Notes under the pieces: generated by a model
Databases searched by the model: none
What the model was told of the DNA's origin: nothing
The model's input: the letters and a program-made list of their open reading frames with translations, nothing else
In this document: in pieces, positions 1,043 through 55,987 of the stretch
Layout: each line of letters begins with the position of its first letter
How positions within the stretch are numbered: the stretch's first letter is position 1
Origin: Escherichia coli
GTDB taxonomy: Bacteria > Pseudomonadota > Gammaproteobacteria > Enterobacterales > Enterobacteriaceae
DNA: 64,000 bases
NCBI RefSeq assembly: GCF_048403405.1
Contig: NZ_CP183129.1
Direction: 5' to 3' (one strand)
Made by a program: the position numbers and the translations under genes

Positions 1043-1127
1043 TGGTGCCGAAGGCCGGACTCGAACCGGCACGTATTTCTACGGTTGATTTTGAATCAAC
1101 TGCGTCTACCGATTTCGCCACTTCGGC
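1043..1127 (-). tRNA. leuX: tRNA-Leu (anticodon CAA)
   Basis: Reverse complement reads GCCGAAGTGGCGAAATCGGTAGACGCAGTTGATTCAAAATCAACCGTAGAAATACGTGCCGGTTCGAGTCCGGCCTTCGGCACCA: long variable arm, CAA anticodon loop, T-loop GGTTCGAGTCC, encoded CCA end. Confidence 0.95.
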
Positions 1128-26901: not shown

Positions 26902-29598
26902 TTACTGCCAGCCGTAACGACGGCTATAGAACCCTTTCACCAACTGGGTTAACGTCATATACCCTGCCAGAATCGCAACCAGCCACGGGAAATAGCTTAA
27001 CGGCAGCGCCTGCAGCTGCAGATAACTGGCCAGCGGTGAAAACGGCAATGCGATCCCGACAATCATCACGATCACGGTCATGATCATTAACGGCCACGAT
27101 GCACAGCTCTGAATAAACGGTACACGACGGGTGCGGATCATATGCACAATCAGCGTTTGCGACAGTAAGCCCACCACAAACCAGCCCGACTGGAACAGCG
27201 TTTGCGTTTCCGGCGTGTTGGCATGGAATACCCACCACATCAGGCAAAACGTCAGAATATCGAAGATCGAGCTGATCGGTCCGAAGAAGATCATAAAGCG
27301 CCCCAGATCCGCCGGATTCCAACGCTGCGGCTTTTGAATTTGCTCGTCGTCGACGTTATCAAACGGGATCGCCACCTGTGACACATCGTACAGCAGGTTC
27401 TGAATAAGCAAGTGTAACGGCAACATCGGCAGGAAGGGCAAGAAAGCACTCGCCACCAGCACGCTGAACACATTACCGAAGTTAGAACTCGCCGTCATTT
27501 TGATGTATTTCAGCATGTTGGCGAAAGTGCGACGTCCCTCAATAACCCCCTCTTCCAGCACCATCAGGCTTTTTTCCAGCAGGATGATATCAGCCGCTTC
27601 ACGGGCAATATCTACCGCGCCGTCCACAGAAATGCCGATATCCGCAGCACGTAAGGCGGGCGCATCATTAATACCATCGCCCATAAAGCCAACCACATGC
27701 CCTTCGCGCTTCAGTAAGGTCACAATGCGTTCTTTATGCATCGGCGTCAGGCGAGCAAACAGCGTGGTGCGCTGTGCGAGATTTGCCAGTTCATCGTCAG
27801 ATAGCGTTTCAATATCACTACCAATGACCACCTCTCCCGCGTCCAGCCCCACTTCATGGCACACTTTCGCTGCAACTAACTCACTGTCGCCAGTAAGGAT
27901 TTTTACGGTAATGCCACTCGCTTTTAATGCCTTCAGTGCCGGAGCAGTTGTCTCTTTTGGCGGATCAAGGAAAGCAATATATCCTTCGAGGATCAGGTCG
28001 GATTCATCCGCTCGCTGGTAATCGCCTTCACGCGCTGGCAGGTATTTCGTCGCCACCGCAACCACGCGCAGCCCCTGACGATTCAGCGTATCAGTAACCC
28101 GCTTAATCTTACGCAGCATGGTGTCATCGAGCGGCACAATCTCGCCATTGTGACGCACCTGCGAACACACATTGAGGATTTCCTGCAATGCGCCTTTGCA
28201 AACCAGCTGATGGTGCTCGGTATTTTCTGCCACTACCACCGACATCCGGCGACGCTCGAAATCAAACGGAATCTCATCAATTTTTTGCCAACGGCTGGCC
28301 AGCGAGCGCGCTGACTCTTCATCCGTACCTTCGAGCACCGCGGTATCAAGCAGGTTTTTAAGTCCGGTCTGGTAATGACTGTTCAACCACGCGCTATGCA
28401 GCACGCGTTCGCTGGTTTTACCGGAGATATCGGTATGATTCTCCAGCACAATTTTGTCCTGCGTCAGGGTGCCGGTTTTATCAGTGCACAGAATATCCAT
28501 TGCGCCAAAGTTCTGAATGGCATCCAGATGCTTGACGATCACTTTCTGTTTCGACAGCTTTACTGCGCCGCGCGCCAGCGTCGAGGTAACAATCATCGGC
28601 AACATTTCTGGCGTTAAGCCTACCGCGACCGAAAGCGCAAACAGTGCCGCTTCCCACCAGTCACCTTTGGTGTAACCGTTGATAAGCAACACCACCGGAG
28701 CCATCACCAGCATAAAGCGAATCAGCAGCATACTGACGCGGCTGATCCCTTGCTGAAAGGCATTCGGCTCGCTTTCCTGCTCACTAACACGCCCCGCCAG
28801 TTGACCAAACCAAGTGTTGGCTCCTGTAGCAATCACCATTGCTTGTGCCGTGCCGCTCACCACGGTGGTGCCCATAAAACACAGGGTGTCGCACTCCAGC
28901 GGATTGCTGTGCTCCGGCTGGCGAGTAGTAGCGGCTTTTTCCACGGGCAGAGACTCACCGGTTAACGACGCCTGAGCGACGAACAGATCCCGCGCCTGCA
29001 AGATACGTAAATCTGCCGGGATCATATCCCCTGCCGCCAGTTTTATAATATCGCCGGGCACCAGCTGGTCGATCGGGATCTCCAGCCAGCCATTTTCGCC
29101 TTTGTCGTTAATTACGCGCAGCACCGTCGCAGTATTGCTGACCATCGCTTTCAGGGCATCTGCCGCTTTAGTGGAACGTGCTTCCTGAATAAAGTTCAGC
29201 AACGTAGAAATAGCGACCATTAGCGCGATAACGCCCGCGGCAAATAAATCTTCCGTGGCGTAAGAAATAGCGCCGAGAATGGTGAGTAAAATATTAAAGG
29301 GGTTGCGATAGCAGACCCATAAATGTACCCACCACGGCGACGGTTGTTGTGCGGGTAATTTATTTTCACCATGTTGTTCGCGGGCAGATTCCACTTCCGC
29401 CTGATTTAATCCCTCCGGATGGGTGTCGAACGTTTTCCACAATTCTTCTTCGGGCATCACCGCCATTTTCAGGCAATGCGCACTTAAGGACGGCGGGACC
29501 GCCGTATTCACTGTCTGCTGCGCGCCAGGCAATGGATCGCGATGAACCAGACGGGAAGGTAAATGGCGAATGAACCGGGTAAAAATTTCTTTAAACAT
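26902..29598 (-). CDS. mgtA: Mg2+-importing P-type ATPase
   Basis: 898-aa ORF; phosphorylation motif CTDKTGTLT and hinge motif GDGINDAPAL. Confidence 0.97.
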   Translation of the reverse strand: MFKEIFTRFIRHLPSRLVHRDPLPGAQQTVNTAVPPSLSAHCLKMAVMPEEELWKTFDTHPEGLNQAEVESAREQHGENKLPAQQPSPWWVHLWVCYRNPFNILLTILGAISYATEDLFAAGVIALMVAISTLLNFIQEARSTKAADALKAMVSNTATVLRVINDKGENGWLEIPIDQLVPGDIIKLAAGDMIPADLRILQARDLFVAQASLTGESLPVEKAATTRQPEHSNPLECDTLCFMGTTVVSGTAQAMVIATGANTWFGQLAGRVSEQESEPNAFQQGISRVSMLLIRFMLVMAPVVLLINGYTKGDWWEAALFALSVAVGLTPEMLPMIVTSTLARGAVKLSKQKVIVKHLDAIQNFGAMDILCTDKTGTLTQDKIVLENHTDISGKTSERVLHSAWLNSHYQTGLKNLLDTAVLEGTDEESARSLASRWQKIDEIPFDFERRRMSVVVAENTEHHQLVCKGALQEILNVCSQVRHNGEIVPLDDTMLRKIKRVTDTLNRQGLRVVAVATKYLPAREGDYQRADESDLILEGYIAFLDPPKETTAPALKALKASGITVKILTGDSELVAAKVCHEVGLDAGEVVIGSDIETLSDDELANLAQRTTLFARLTPMHKERIVTLLKREGHVVGFMGDGINDAPALRAADIGISVDGAVDIAREAADIILLEKSLMVLEEGVIEGRRTFANMLKYIKMTASSNFGNVFSVLVASAFLPFLPMLPLHLLIQNLLYDVSQVAIPFDNVDDEQIQKPQRWNPADLGRFMIFFGPISSIFDILTFCLMWWVFHANTPETQTLFQSGWFVVGLLSQTLIVHMIRTRRVPFIQSCASWPLMIMTVIVMIVGIALPFSPLASYLQLQALPLSYFPWLVAILAGYMTLTQLVKGFYSRRYGWQ

Positions 29599-29738
29599 AA
29601 GGAGTCCCTCCGCACTGTCTGAAACAGTACAGAAATGTCTTCAGGCGTGGCGAAGCCTTACCTGAAGGTAATAAAGCTGAGCTGGGACGTTAAAACGTCA
29701 CGGCCTTACGCATCCGGTAACGCCGTGAAAAGACGGGC

Positions 29739-29792
29739 TTACCGGAAAAGTTTTAATCTCCGTCGAGGGAGAGGCGTGGGATCAGGTTCCAT
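29739..29792 (-). CDS. mgtL: mgtA leader peptide (proline-rich)
   Basis: 17-codon [20 protein letters not shown] in the leader upstream of mgtA. Confidence 0.8.
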
Positions 29793-29976
29793 ATAACCTC
29801 CGGTAAGTGAAAAAAGCGCCGCAAATAATAAGGAGAATCCAATAATATTCGTAGCATCTATGGCGATATAATACCTGCTGGCAACTAAACCAACGATAAA
29901 CCAGACTTTACCCATTGCTGAATGCACGGGTAAAGTTAGGCTCAAATAATTAAACAACACGTTACGGGACAACAGG

Positions 29977-30924
29977 ATGCAAAATCGGCTGACCATCAAA
30001 GACATCGCGCGCTTAAGCGGCGTGGGGAAATCTACGGTTTCCCGGGTGCTGAATAACGAAAGCGGCGTGAGCCAGCGCACGCGCGAGCGTGTTGAAGCAG
30101 TGATGAATCAGCATGGATTTTCCCCTTCCCGCTCTGCGCGCGCTATGCGTGGTCAAAGCGATAAAGTGGTCGCCATCATTGTTACCCGTCTGGATTCGTT
30201 GTCAGAAAATCTCGCCGTTCAAACCATGCTGCCAGCGTTCTATGAACAAGGTTACGACCCAATCATGATGGAAAGTCAGTTTTCCCCGCAATTAGTTGCC
30301 GAACATTTGGGGGTGCTGAAACGGCGTAATATCGACGGCGTAGTGCTGTTCGGTTTTACCGGCATAACAGAAGAAATGTTAGCCCACTGGCAGTCATCGC
30401 TGGTTCTGCTGGCGCGTGACGCAAAAGGCTTTGCTTCGGTCTGTTATGACGACGAAGGGGCAATCAAGATCCTGATGCAACGGCTGTATGACCAGGGACA
30501 TCGTAATATCAGTTATCTCGGCGTGCCGCATAGTGACGTGACGACCGGTAAGCGACGTCACGAAGCCTACCTGGCGTTCTGCAAAGCGCATAAATTGCAT
30601 CCCGTTGCCGCTCTGCCAGGGCTTGCTATGAAGCAAGGCTATGAAAACGTAGCAAAAGTGATTACGCCTGAAACTACCGCGTTACTGTGCGCAACCGACA
30701 CGCTGGCACTTGGCGCAAGTAAATACCTGCAAGAGCAACGCATCGACACCTTGCAACTGGCGAGCGTCGGTAATACACCGTTAATGAAATTCCTCCATCC
30801 GGAGATCGTCACCGTTGATCCCGGTTACGCCGAAGCTGGACGCCAGGCGGCCTGCCAGTTGATCGCGCAGGTAACCGGGCGCAGCGAACCGCAACAAATC
30901 ATCATCCCCGCCACCCTGTCCTGA
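29977..30924 (+). CDS. treR: Trehalose operon repressor (LacI family)
   Basis: 315-aa ORF; N-terminal HTH TIKDIARLSGVGKSTVSRVLNN. Confidence 0.9.
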   Translation: MQNRLTIKDIARLSGVGKSTVSRVLNNESGVSQRTRERVEAVMNQHGFSPSRSARAMRGQSDKVVAIIVTRLDSLSENLAVQTMLPAFYEQGYDPIMMESQFSPQLVAEHLGVLKRRNIDGVVLFGFTGITEEMLAHWQSSLVLLARDAKGFASVCYDDEGAIKILMQRLYDQGHRNISYLGVPHSDVTTGKRRHEAYLAFCKAHKLHPVAALPGLAMKQGYENVAKVITPETTALLCATDTLALGASKYLQEQRIDTLQLASVGNTPLMKFLHPEIVTVDPGYAEAGRQAACQLIAQVTGRSEPQQIIIPATLS

Positions 30925-31042: not shown

Positions 31043-32464
31043 ATGATGAGCAAAATAAACCAAACGGATATCGATCGGTTGATTGAACTGGTCGGCGGGC
31101 GCGGCAATATTGCGACAGTGAGCCACTGTATAACTCGCCTGCGCTTTGTCCTCAACCAACCGGCCAATGCCAGACCGAAAGAAATTGAGCAACTCCCCAT
31201 GGTGAAAGGCTGTTTCACCAATGCCGGGCAATTTCAGGTGGTAATTGGCACCAACGTGGGTGATTACTATCAAGCACTGATAGCGTCAACCGGACAGGCG
31301 CAGGTTGATAAAGAGCAGGTAAAAAAAGCCGCACGGCAGAATATGAAATGGCATGAGCAGTTGATCTCTCATTTCGCGGAGATCTTCTTCCCGTTGCTGC
31401 CCGCGTTGATTAGTGGTGGTTTGATCCTCGGTTTTCGCAATGTGATCGGCGATTTGCCCATGAGCAACGGTCAGACGCTGGCGCAAATGTACCCTTCCCT
31501 GCAAACGATCTACGATTTTCTGTGGTTGATCGGTGAAGCGATCTTCTTCTACCTACCGGTCGGGATTTGCTGGTCAGCGGTGAAAAAAATGGGCGGTACA
31601 CCGATCCTCGGTATCGTGCTTGGCGTAACGCTGGTTTCTCCACAGCTGATGAACGCTTATCTGCTCGGGCAGCAGCTGCCGGAAGTATGGGACTTTGGCA
31701 TGTTCAGCATCGCCAAAGTGGGCTATCAGGCGCAGGTGATCCCGGCACTGTTAGCCGGGCTGGCGCTGGGCGTTATTGAAACTCGTCTTAAGCGCATCGT
31801 GCCGGATTACCTCTATCTGGTGGTGGTGCCCGTCTGTTCGCTGATCCTCGCGGTGTTCCTCGCCCATGCGCTGATTGGTCCGTTTGGTCGCATGATTGGC
31901 AATGGCGTTGCCTTTGCGGTACGTCACCTGATGACCGGCAGCTTTGCTCCGATTGGCGCGGCATTGTTTGGCTTCCTGTACGCCCCGCTGGTGATCACCG
32001 GCGTACATCAGACCACGCTTGCTATTGATTTGCAGATGATTCAAAGCATGGGTGGTACGCCAGTGTGGCCGCTGATTGCGCTGTCGAATATCGCTCAGGG
32101 CTCCGCCGTGATAGGTATTATCATTTCCAGCCGCAAGCACAATGAACGCGAGATCTCCGTGCCTGCCGCTATCTCCGCCTGGCTTGGAGTCACTGAGCCT
32201 GCTATGTACGGCATCAACCTGAAATATCGCTTCCCGATGCTGTGCGCGATGATTGGTTCTGGTCTGGCAGGATTGCTATGCGGCCTGAACGGCGTTATGG
32301 CGAATGGCATCGGCGTAGGCGGCCTGCCGGGAATTCTCTCGATTCAACCGAGCTACTGGCAGGTGTTTGCGCTGGCAATGGCTATCGCCATCATCATCCC
32401 GATTGTACTCACCTCGTTTATCTATCAGCGGAAATACCGCCTGGGCACGCTGGACATTGTTTAA
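31043..32464 (+). CDS. treB: PTS trehalose-specific EIIBC component
   Basis: 473-aa ORF; N-terminal EIIB phospho-cysteine motif SHCITRLRF followed by the membrane EIIC domain. Confidence 0.95.
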   Translation: MMSKINQTDIDRLIELVGGRGNIATVSHCITRLRFVLNQPANARPKEIEQLPMVKGCFTNAGQFQVVIGTNVGDYYQALIASTGQAQVDKEQVKKAARQNMKWHEQLISHFAEIFFPLLPALISGGLILGFRNVIGDLPMSNGQTLAQMYPSLQTIYDFLWLIGEAIFFYLPVGICWSAVKKMGGTPILGIVLGVTLVSPQLMNAYLLGQQLPEVWDFGMFSIAKVGYQAQVIPALLAGLALGVIETRLKRIVPDYLYLVVVPVCSLILAVFLAHALIGPFGRMIGNGVAFAVRHLMTGSFAPIGAALFGFLYAPLVITGVHQTTLAIDLQMIQSMGGTPVWPLIALSNIAQGSAVIGIIISSRKHNEREISVPAAISAWLGVTEPAMYGINLKYRFPMLCAMIGSGLAGLLCGLNGVMANGIGVGGLPGILSIQPSYWQVFALAMAIAIIIPIVLTSFIYQRKYRLGTLDIV

Positions 32465-46144: not shown

Positions 46145-46189
46145 AGTTTCCCCCGGTGAAAAGCGTGCGCCCGGTAAGCCAGATAAGAC

Positions 46190-46285
46190 ACAACAGCGTC
46201 GCATCAGGCATCTCGCACAATCGCCGGATGCGGCATAAACACCTTATCCGGCGGCGTACAAGTCGGCATCAGGCATTGATGCCCC
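46190..46285. repeat. REP elements between ytfR and ytfQ
   Basis: CGCCGGATGCGGCATAAACACCTTATCCGGCGGCGTACA and CGGCATCAGGCATTGATGCC. Confidence 0.8.
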
Positions 46286-55810: not shown

Positions 55811-55987
55811 AGTTTTTCATTTATCAGCAGTCTGAATTTTAACCCTCTGGCGGCTTTACAGTACCTTACGCTATACTAGCCACTGAAAATGCCGGTTCAC
55901 TTTCTTCGAATCGGCTTTCAATGTGTATTTCACACAAATTAATCAACTTCCCCTTCCGAGGATCTGGCCTGAAAGGTCGGATAAGAT

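Follow-up and report, generated by a model that had tools for sequence, protein, structure and literature searches.

The locus considered here raises the question of whether the short reading frame lying between mgtA and the divergent treR gene is the regulatory leader peptide gene mgtL, and of how the RNA that carries it could decide whether mgtA is transcribed. The locus occupies positions 29599-29976 of the window, i.e. of the whole 64,000-nucleotide stretch of Escherichia coli DNA that was analysed, and corresponds to the entire mgtA-treR intergenic region.

Genes of the locus and identity of mgtL

The following features define the locus:

26902..29598, minus strand: mgtA, the regulated gene, coding for the Mg2+-importing P-type ATPase of 898 aa (TIGR01524 and RefSeq annotation)
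29606..29611, minus strand: mgtA Shine-Dalgarno sequence GGAGGG (from the sequence)
29692..29807, minus strand: match to Rfam family RF01056, Magnesium-II, spanning stem-loops A and B (Rfam)
29739..29792, minus strand: mgtL leader peptide gene including the TAA stop codon (RefSeq mgtL annotation; identical to K-12 b4702)
29797..29801, minus strand: mgtL Shine-Dalgarno sequence GGAGG, 4 nt upstream of the ATG and within the 5′ arm of stem-loop A (from the sequence)
29977..30924, plus strand: treR, the divergent gene for the trehalose operon repressor of 315 aa, outside the element and given for context (TIGR02405)

The two flanking genes are identified by equivalog HMMs. The mgtA product, whose ATG start codon is at 29598, matches the Mg-translocating P-type ATPase model TIGR01524 with 1609.7 bits (cutoff 610.75), and TreR matches TIGR02405 with 590.7 bits (cutoff 357.35), the next gene after treR being treB (31043..32464). 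Between them, the initial annotation had placed a 17-codon mgtL on the minus strand at 29739-29792, and this proved exact to the base, as re-reading of the sequence gave an ATG at 29792..29790 and a TAA at 29741..29739 enclosing 17 codons plus the stop.

The Rfam scan of the whole window returned RF01056, the mgtA leader family, at 29807..29692 on the minus strand with a score of 125.8 bits (E = 5.5e-25, gathering score 40), with model positions 1-115 of 115 matched, and the element is situated in the 5′ leader of the Mg2+-translocating P-type ATPase gene mgtA. The reading frame has all the attributes of MgtL, namely a length within 16-17 codons, a location inside stem-loop A, a Shine-Dalgarno sequence of its own, an N-terminus of the form M-[ED]-P-D-P-T-P and a stop codon in the 3′ arm of A, and its proline codons are found at positions 3, 5, 7 and 9. 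On DNA that is 100% identical, RefSeq annotates WP_001387276.1, 'mgtA regulatory leader peptide MgtL', and it places mgtL, mgtA and treR at the matched region. Taken with the mutually exclusive RNA structures described below, the full-length Rfam match, the RefSeq annotation and the proline codons bear out the identity of the mgtA leader and mgtL that had been assigned from the letters.

A 601-nt query found the region in 5,425 of 5,426 complete E. coli genomes, with at least 80% of the query covered in 5,423. The remaining genome has no match to the region at all. Of the 5,428 places at which the treR-mgtL-mgtA region was matched, three are on records typed as plasmids, not chromosomes.

Promoter and predicted transcript start

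The features assigned upstream of mgtL, together with the transcript that would result from them, are:

29886..29902, minus strand: PhoP box, direct repeat GGTTTA-TCGTT-GGTTTA, with flanks TGGTTTATCGTTGGTTTAG (motif search)
29868..29873, minus strand: TATTAT, putative -10 hexamer for PhoP-dependent transcription of mgtA (sequence reading)
29861..29862, minus strand: inferred transcription start, +1 (Salmonella geometry)
29599..29862, minus strand: mgtA 5′ leader RNA of about 264 nt (folding and K-12 comparison)

A search of the 64 kb for KGTTTA-N5-KGTTTA gave this PhoP box alone, where 0.01 matches would be expected, and with its flanks the box agrees at 18 of 19 bases with the box TGGTTTATCGTTGGTTTAA listed for Salmonella mgtA (PMC3335776). 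The putative -10 hexamer lies 12 nt downstream of the box, which is the spacing of architecture I, and PhoP is predicted to bind there. The Salmonella mgtA promoter has been described as belonging to the same architecture, with the PhoP box 12 nt from the -10, a distance of 7 from the -10 to +1 and a 264-nt leader (PMC3335776). A scan of 29500-30100 for a consensus sigma-70 promoter with -35 and -10 elements detected none, as is expected of an activator-dependent (PhoP) promoter lacking a -35 element. By the Salmonella geometry (PMC3335776; PMC6460261), transcription would start at 29861 or 29862 and give a leader of about 264 nt, numbered here with 29862 as position 1.

This geometry narrows the interval that had been offered as the leader. 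Of 29599-29976, the part from about 29599 to 29861/29862 does correspond to the leader, and the remaining ~114 bp are the PhoP-dependent promoter and the treR upstream region.

A break close to the predicted start was seen in E. coli GCU-H1, a dolphin isolate (NZ_CP178558.1, 4001-5242), in which the match ends at window position 29857, about at the predicted mgtA transcription start, and is followed by an IS1 transposase gene, a truncated Rid-family gene and bdcA. In this strain mgtL, mgtA and their neighbours are deleted beside IS1.

Structures of the leader RNA

Folding of the leader in search of alternative stem-loops, which had been proposed as a check on the assignment, revealed two mutually exclusive and conserved arrangements, A plus B on the one hand and C on the other:

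29738..29807, minus strand: stem-loop A, leader positions 56-125 (MFE fold and Rfam consensus)
29698..29728, minus strand: stem-loop B, leader positions 135-165, the 'attenuator' hairpin of the high-Mg2+ conformation (MFE fold and Rfam)
29713..29746, minus strand: alternative stem-loop C, leader positions 117-150 (constrained folding)

The leader folds with a minimum free energy (MFE) of -88.5 kcal/mol (z = -4.06), and none of 200 shuffled sequences folds as well. A and B make up the MFE structure. Stem-loop A consists of an 11-bp outer helix around mgtL with two small inner hairpins, its 5′ arm holding the mgtL Shine-Dalgarno sequence and its 3′ arm the mgtL stop codon. The 3′ arm is also the strand common to A and C, since in C the 3′ arm of A (UCCGGUAA) is paired with the 5′ arm and loop of B (UUACCGGA, 29720..29713). 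Stem-loop C appears once pairing of the 5′ arm of A is forbidden, at -83.7 versus -88.5 kcal/mol. When a 30-nt ribosome footprint was instead placed on the proline codons, the outer helix of A was still closed in silico, in a fold that ignores sterics, and this footprint model was superseded by the blocking of the 5′ arm.

A scan of the minus strand over 29599-29862 for intrinsic terminators gave no site, and the sole terminator-like site of the scanned region (30082..30065) lies inside treR in the antisense orientation. The reading of the leader as an attenuator of the trp/his type was therefore rejected, as there is no terminator-like site in it and the intrinsic terminator score published for the E. 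coli leader, 1.46, is below the threshold of 3 (PMC7815308). The Mg2+- and proline-sensing arrangement claimed for the locus is supported, with two refinements: it is not a classical attenuator, and in E. coli the sensing motif is described as the acidic and proline-containing EPDP, which destabilises the ribosome at low Mg2+, rather than the proline codons alone. Composition (C minus G) singles out C-rich, G-poor windows at leader positions 81-120 and 161-220; an assignment of rut sites to these windows was dropped as the signal is too weak.

Conservation in the Enterobacteriaceae

Homologs were collected by searching contigs of one genome per species with a degenerate DNA pattern built from conserved Rfam positions, which yielded 62 loci from Escherichia, Citrobacter, Enterobacter, Kluyvera, Raoultella, Klebsiella, Kosakonia, Leclercia, Pluralibacter and others. 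The pattern missed Salmonella, Klebsiella pneumoniae and more distant genera, so the set is biased towards sequences that match it. It also partly forces the conservation of codons 1-6, of the CCGG cores and of the outer helix of A, and codons 1-6 and the CCGG cores are not counted as evidence in what follows.

Downstream DNA was long enough to look for mgtA in 61 of the 62 loci, and in every one of these the gene is found 200-325 nt downstream. The reading frame is always 16 or 17 codons long across the 62 species, and the matches are 65 or 68 nt in length and no other, meaning that the frame varies in length by entire codons. In every case the stop codon occupies the free NNN of CCGG-NNN-GCC in the 3′ arm of A (TAA 62, TAG 1). 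At codons left free by the pattern, 56 of 60 distinct reading frames retain Pro7 and 39 retain Pro9; all four synonymous third bases are used at the Thr6 codon, and the C-terminal half of MgtL is variable except for the final F-R. All the homologs have CCGGAGG or CCGGAGA in the region of the mgtL Shine-Dalgarno sequence.

Pairing is conserved in both arrangements. In the homolog alignment A and B are 95.9% paired, a figure that falls to 37-50% on sliding the 3′ partners by 1-3 columns. The outer helix of A, partly fixed by the pattern, is 97.8% paired among 61 distinct homologs, and stem B, which lies outside the pattern, is paired in 96.6% of cells and shows compensatory changes on both sides in 7 of its 12 pairs. 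Stem-loop C is 87.6% paired versus 20-51% when slid, its core CCGGUAAG/CUUACCGG being 89.6% paired, and each pair of the eight-pair core reaches 89-100%.

When the 61 full homolog fragments were folded, A was part of the MFE structure in 57. With the 5′ arm of A blocked, C was reached at equilibrium in 21 of 61, the 3′ arm of A being left unpaired into C in 39, and this low number is explained by the greater stability of B. In nascent transcripts ending before the 3′ arm of B, again with the 5′ arm of A blocked, C was formed in 52 of 61, with truncation serving as a crude model of transcription order. In the other nine, CCGA, GCGG or CCGC variants remove one of the four pairs that the criterion for C required. 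A purely thermodynamic switch from A to C was rejected on the equilibrium figure, and the difference between 21 and 52 of 61 argues for a switch that, in these folding models, is kinetic and co-transcriptional, which agrees with the published coupling model (PMC6460261; PMC11552253).

The Rfam model does not cover the 3′ third of the leader (29599..29700), in which a comparison of 31 distinct homolog segments showed conserved blocks at about leader positions 174-182 and 213-222, and a Shine-Dalgarno sequence resembling G[AG]GGGA is kept ahead of the mgtA start.

All the homolog loci are labelled Enterobacteriaceae with the exception of one, CACSKA010000007.1, labelled Chryseobacterium sp. 18061, which bears an enterobacterial mgtA leader with mgtL. 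This contig has 56% G+C and is 94% identical to a contig of Citrobacter sp. 18056 and 85% identical to a Pluralibacter contig, so the label is probably wrong or the assembly contaminated.

Proposed mechanism of regulation and the role of mgtL translation

With a probability of about 0.9, the region is the E. coli mgtLA regulatory region, in which a PhoP-driven leader governs read-through into mgtA. The identity and anatomy of the locus, both RNA structures with their conservation, the conservation of the frame and the absence of an intrinsic terminator were obtained in this analysis. That mgtL is translated in E. coli, with Mg2+-dependent abortion at EPDP, and that termination is Rho-dependent in Salmonella is taken from the literature. 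No observation speaks against the identification itself; the mechanism in its details is weakened by the conflicting data on Rho in E. coli, by the small share of homologs that reach C at equilibrium and by the footprint that left A closed.

The proposed sequence of events would begin at the PhoP-activated promoter, from which the ~264-nt leader would be made and would decide whether transcription continues into mgtA. A ribosome would load on mgtL while the RNA is being synthesized. When both Mg2+ and proline are sufficient, it would clear M-E-P-D-P-T-P-L-P and reach the stop codon in the strand common to A and C, where it would block C, so that A and B would form and transcription would end before mgtA. 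Early stalling or drop-off at EPDP, as may be caused by low Mg2+, low proline or the loss of EF-P, bL31 or EttA, would uncouple translation from transcription. The common strand would then pair downstream into C ahead of the synthesis of the 3′ arm of B, and the polymerase would enter mgtA.

Published experiments have shown the translation of mgtL, which had been named as a point to check, so that neither of the refuting conditions set beforehand, an untranslated ORF and a leader lacking alternative structures, applies. For the identical E. coli sequence, mgtL-yfp fusions are expressed and mgtL is translated in vitro; a toeprint with Pro3 in the P site was obtained, EttA counteracts drop-off, and the E2Q/D4N substitutions raise mgtL and abolish expression of an mgtA reporter (PMC11282234). 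The E. coli EPDP sequence was shown to cause intrinsic ribosome destabilisation with Pth-sensitive peptidyl-tRNA drop-off within MEPDPT (bioRxiv 10.1101/2021.02.02.429294). In Salmonella, deletion of efp raises mgtA mRNA about 12-fold, an effect that depends on the mgtL proline codons (PMC6460261). High Mg2+ lowers mgtA expression via the leader, with A and B present at high and C at low Mg2+, and the regulation has been attributed mainly to mgtL, where elongation is inefficient at low Mg2+ owing to the proline and acidic residues (PMC11552253).

An alternative is that the leader is mainly a direct Mg2+-sensing riboswitch, in which Mg2+ itself would favour A and B over C without translation of mgtL, leaving to mgtL a secondary input of proline or osmotic stress. 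Rfam does list the element among riboswitch aptamers, covariation accompanies the conservation of the RNA structures, and in vitro Mg2+-dependent folding of the RNA alone can modulate Rho termination on the Salmonella mgtA leader (PMC11552253). However, the frame, its length and the position of the stop codon in the stem are kept in 62 species with synonymous third-base variation, which would be needless for a pure RNA sensor, and in E. coli it is through the translation of mgtL that EPDP, bL31 and EttA set mgtA expression (PMC11552253; PMC11282234; bioRxiv 10.1101/2021.02.02.429294). We therefore consider it unlikely, at roughly one chance in five, that direct sensing predominates, the two readings being mutually compatible.

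The termination step in E. coli

How transcription would be stopped in the leader when A and B are formed is described differently for Salmonella and E. coli. In Salmonella, termination in the leader is Rho-dependent (PMC12360218), whereas for E. coli the conservation of the Rho step has been questioned (PMC11552253; the 2025 review PMC12360218). Two 3′ ends published for E. coli can be placed on the leader:

29647, minus strand: published Term-seq 3′ end 4467576, mapped to the window at about leader position 216
29733, minus strand: published Term-seq 3′ end 4467490 (supplementary file 1 of PMC7815308), mapped to the window at about leader position 130

The former was reported for MG1655 from Term-seq and DirectRNA-seq with and without bicyclomycin (supplementary file 3 of PMC7815308). 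It precedes the mgtA ATG by 49 nt and falls within a 'significant Rho termination region', flagged 'Yes', its Rho score being 1.56 and its intrinsic terminator score 1.46, below the 3.0 threshold (PMC7815308). Its position near leader 216 is close to the Rho sites at ~220 of Salmonella leaders (PMC11552253). The latter follows stem-loop A by 5 nt and the mgtL stop codon by 6 nt, directly before CUUUU. It could be the product expected from exonuclease trimming to a stable hairpin, the alternatives being a pause site and a primary or non-canonical stop.

These data bear on the possibility that the output of the E. coli leader is not Rho-dependent, and that its 3′ ends are produced by RNase decay or processing or by a non-canonical stop just past A. 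It is suggested by the Rho termination score of 1.0 obtained for E. coli mgtA by ChIP-qPCR with rho R66S, when polymerase occupancy still drops across mgtA (PMC5499598), and by the strong 3′ end at leader ~130 with the CUUUU next to it. On the other hand, R66S may spare some terminators according to the authors of the ChIP study (PMC5499598), the bicyclomycin data assign the end 49 nt upstream of mgtA to a significant Rho region (PMC7815308), the agreement of leader ~216 with the Salmonella sites at ~220 (PMC11552253) fits Rho, and the end at ~130 is explicable by trimming, no intrinsic terminator having been found in the leader. An output independent of Rho is regarded as unlikely. The missing intrinsic terminator is itself consistent with Rho without proving it, and we infer that Rho is the terminator in E. 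coli as well. A still more tentative idea is that E. coli, unlike Salmonella, executes the OFF state without Rho, with some other stop or decay mechanism acting on the same conserved A/B/C switch; were this so, the 3′ end at 29733 and the R66S-insensitive drop in occupancy would reflect that non-Rho stop or decay.

Other reading frames and features in the window

That the 17-codon frame is a chance intergenic ORF in a leader with no regulatory role, as might be argued from the frequency of short ORFs and from a second ORF of 34 codons (29857..29753) in the same leader, is practically refuted already by the Rfam match, the conservation in 62 species, the well-placed Shine-Dalgarno sequence, the curated annotation and the translation experiments in E. 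coli.

The 34-codon frame was rejected as a rival to mgtL, as it lacks a Shine-Dalgarno sequence and its start codon is only 5 nt away from the predicted 5′ end. An ORF of 113 aa in the mgtL frame (29739..30080, minus strand), with a GTG start at 30080 that is upstream of the promoter and antisense to the start of treR, was likewise set aside as having no apparent significance.

The treR gene of the window is intact, with an ORF of 315 aa, a full-length match to TIGR02405 and a length of 948 nt as in K-12 treR. For the base-for-base identical treR of E. coli strain 7/2, RefSeq gives a pseudogene 'missing N-terminus' that begins 3 bases ahead of the ATG, which looks like an annotation artefact.

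A tRNA-Leu gene with the anticodon CAA is located at 1043-1127 (minus strand), in the position relative to mgtA expected for leuX; leuX is a frequent integration site of genomic islands. The other Rfam matches above the gathering score are Ysr276 (12099-12293, minus strand, 184.6 bits), ES239 (60498-60620, minus strand, 157.4 bits), STnc450 (55869-55926, plus strand, 77.2 bits) and naRNA4 (46177-46253, minus strand, 68.6 bits).

Comparison with known systems

The same locus of K-12 MG1655 (mgtL b4702, mgtA b4242) differs from the window by 7 substitutions and no indels over the 501 nt compared. None of the substitutions falls in mgtL, the Rfam-matched region, the PhoP box or either start codon; one is in the leader (29683, leader ~180, downstream of B) and one in the promoter spacer (29881). 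No functional consequence of the substitutions is evident from the sequences.

The Salmonella enterica mgtA leader, by its published descriptions, is alike in having a PhoP box 12 nt from the -10, a leader of ~264 nt with A and B versus C, a 17-codon mgtL inside A with prolines at positions 3, 5, 7 and 9, and no intrinsic terminator. It differs in that Rho termination and a regulatory pause are established there, whereas the evidence for E. coli is conflicting.

The corA leader with corL, in Salmonella and E. coli, shares the OFF state of A and B versus the ON state of C, and the uORF inside A, whose translation is stimulated by Mg2+ and brings about termination in the leader near ~220 (PMC11552253). 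The gene it controls codes for the CorA channel, however, and its promoter is constitutive rather than PhoP-dependent. In CorL only one proline is conserved and acidic residues are fewer than in MgtL, and the E. coli Rho score is 3.3 for corA versus 1.0 for mgtA (PMC11552253).

In the trpL, hisL, pheL and leuL attenuators, as in the mgtA leader, it is the speed of leader peptide translation that picks the RNA hairpin and with it read-through. They differ in possessing an intrinsic terminator composed of a GC hairpin and a U run, which the mgtA leader does not have, and the sensing codons of mgtL are interspersed proline and acidic codons that also report Mg2+ via ribosome stability.

The M-box (ykoK) of Firmicutes is similarly a leader RNA that responds to Mg2+ and precedes a gene for a Mg2+ transporter. 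It belongs to an unrelated RNA family, with no match in the window at the gathering threshold, is not known to have a leader peptide and uses an intrinsic terminator.

Significance

The mgtL gene and the mgtA leader are already known, curated and experimentally dissected, and the copy in the window is essentially the K-12 sequence. As the element is present in essentially every E. coli genome, the value of the finding as a discovery is small, and a leader that is one position off K-12 contributes nothing new to the disagreement about Rho. Its value is that of a calibration point, at which the identification of a regulatory leader peptide gene from raw sequence turned out to be exact to the base.
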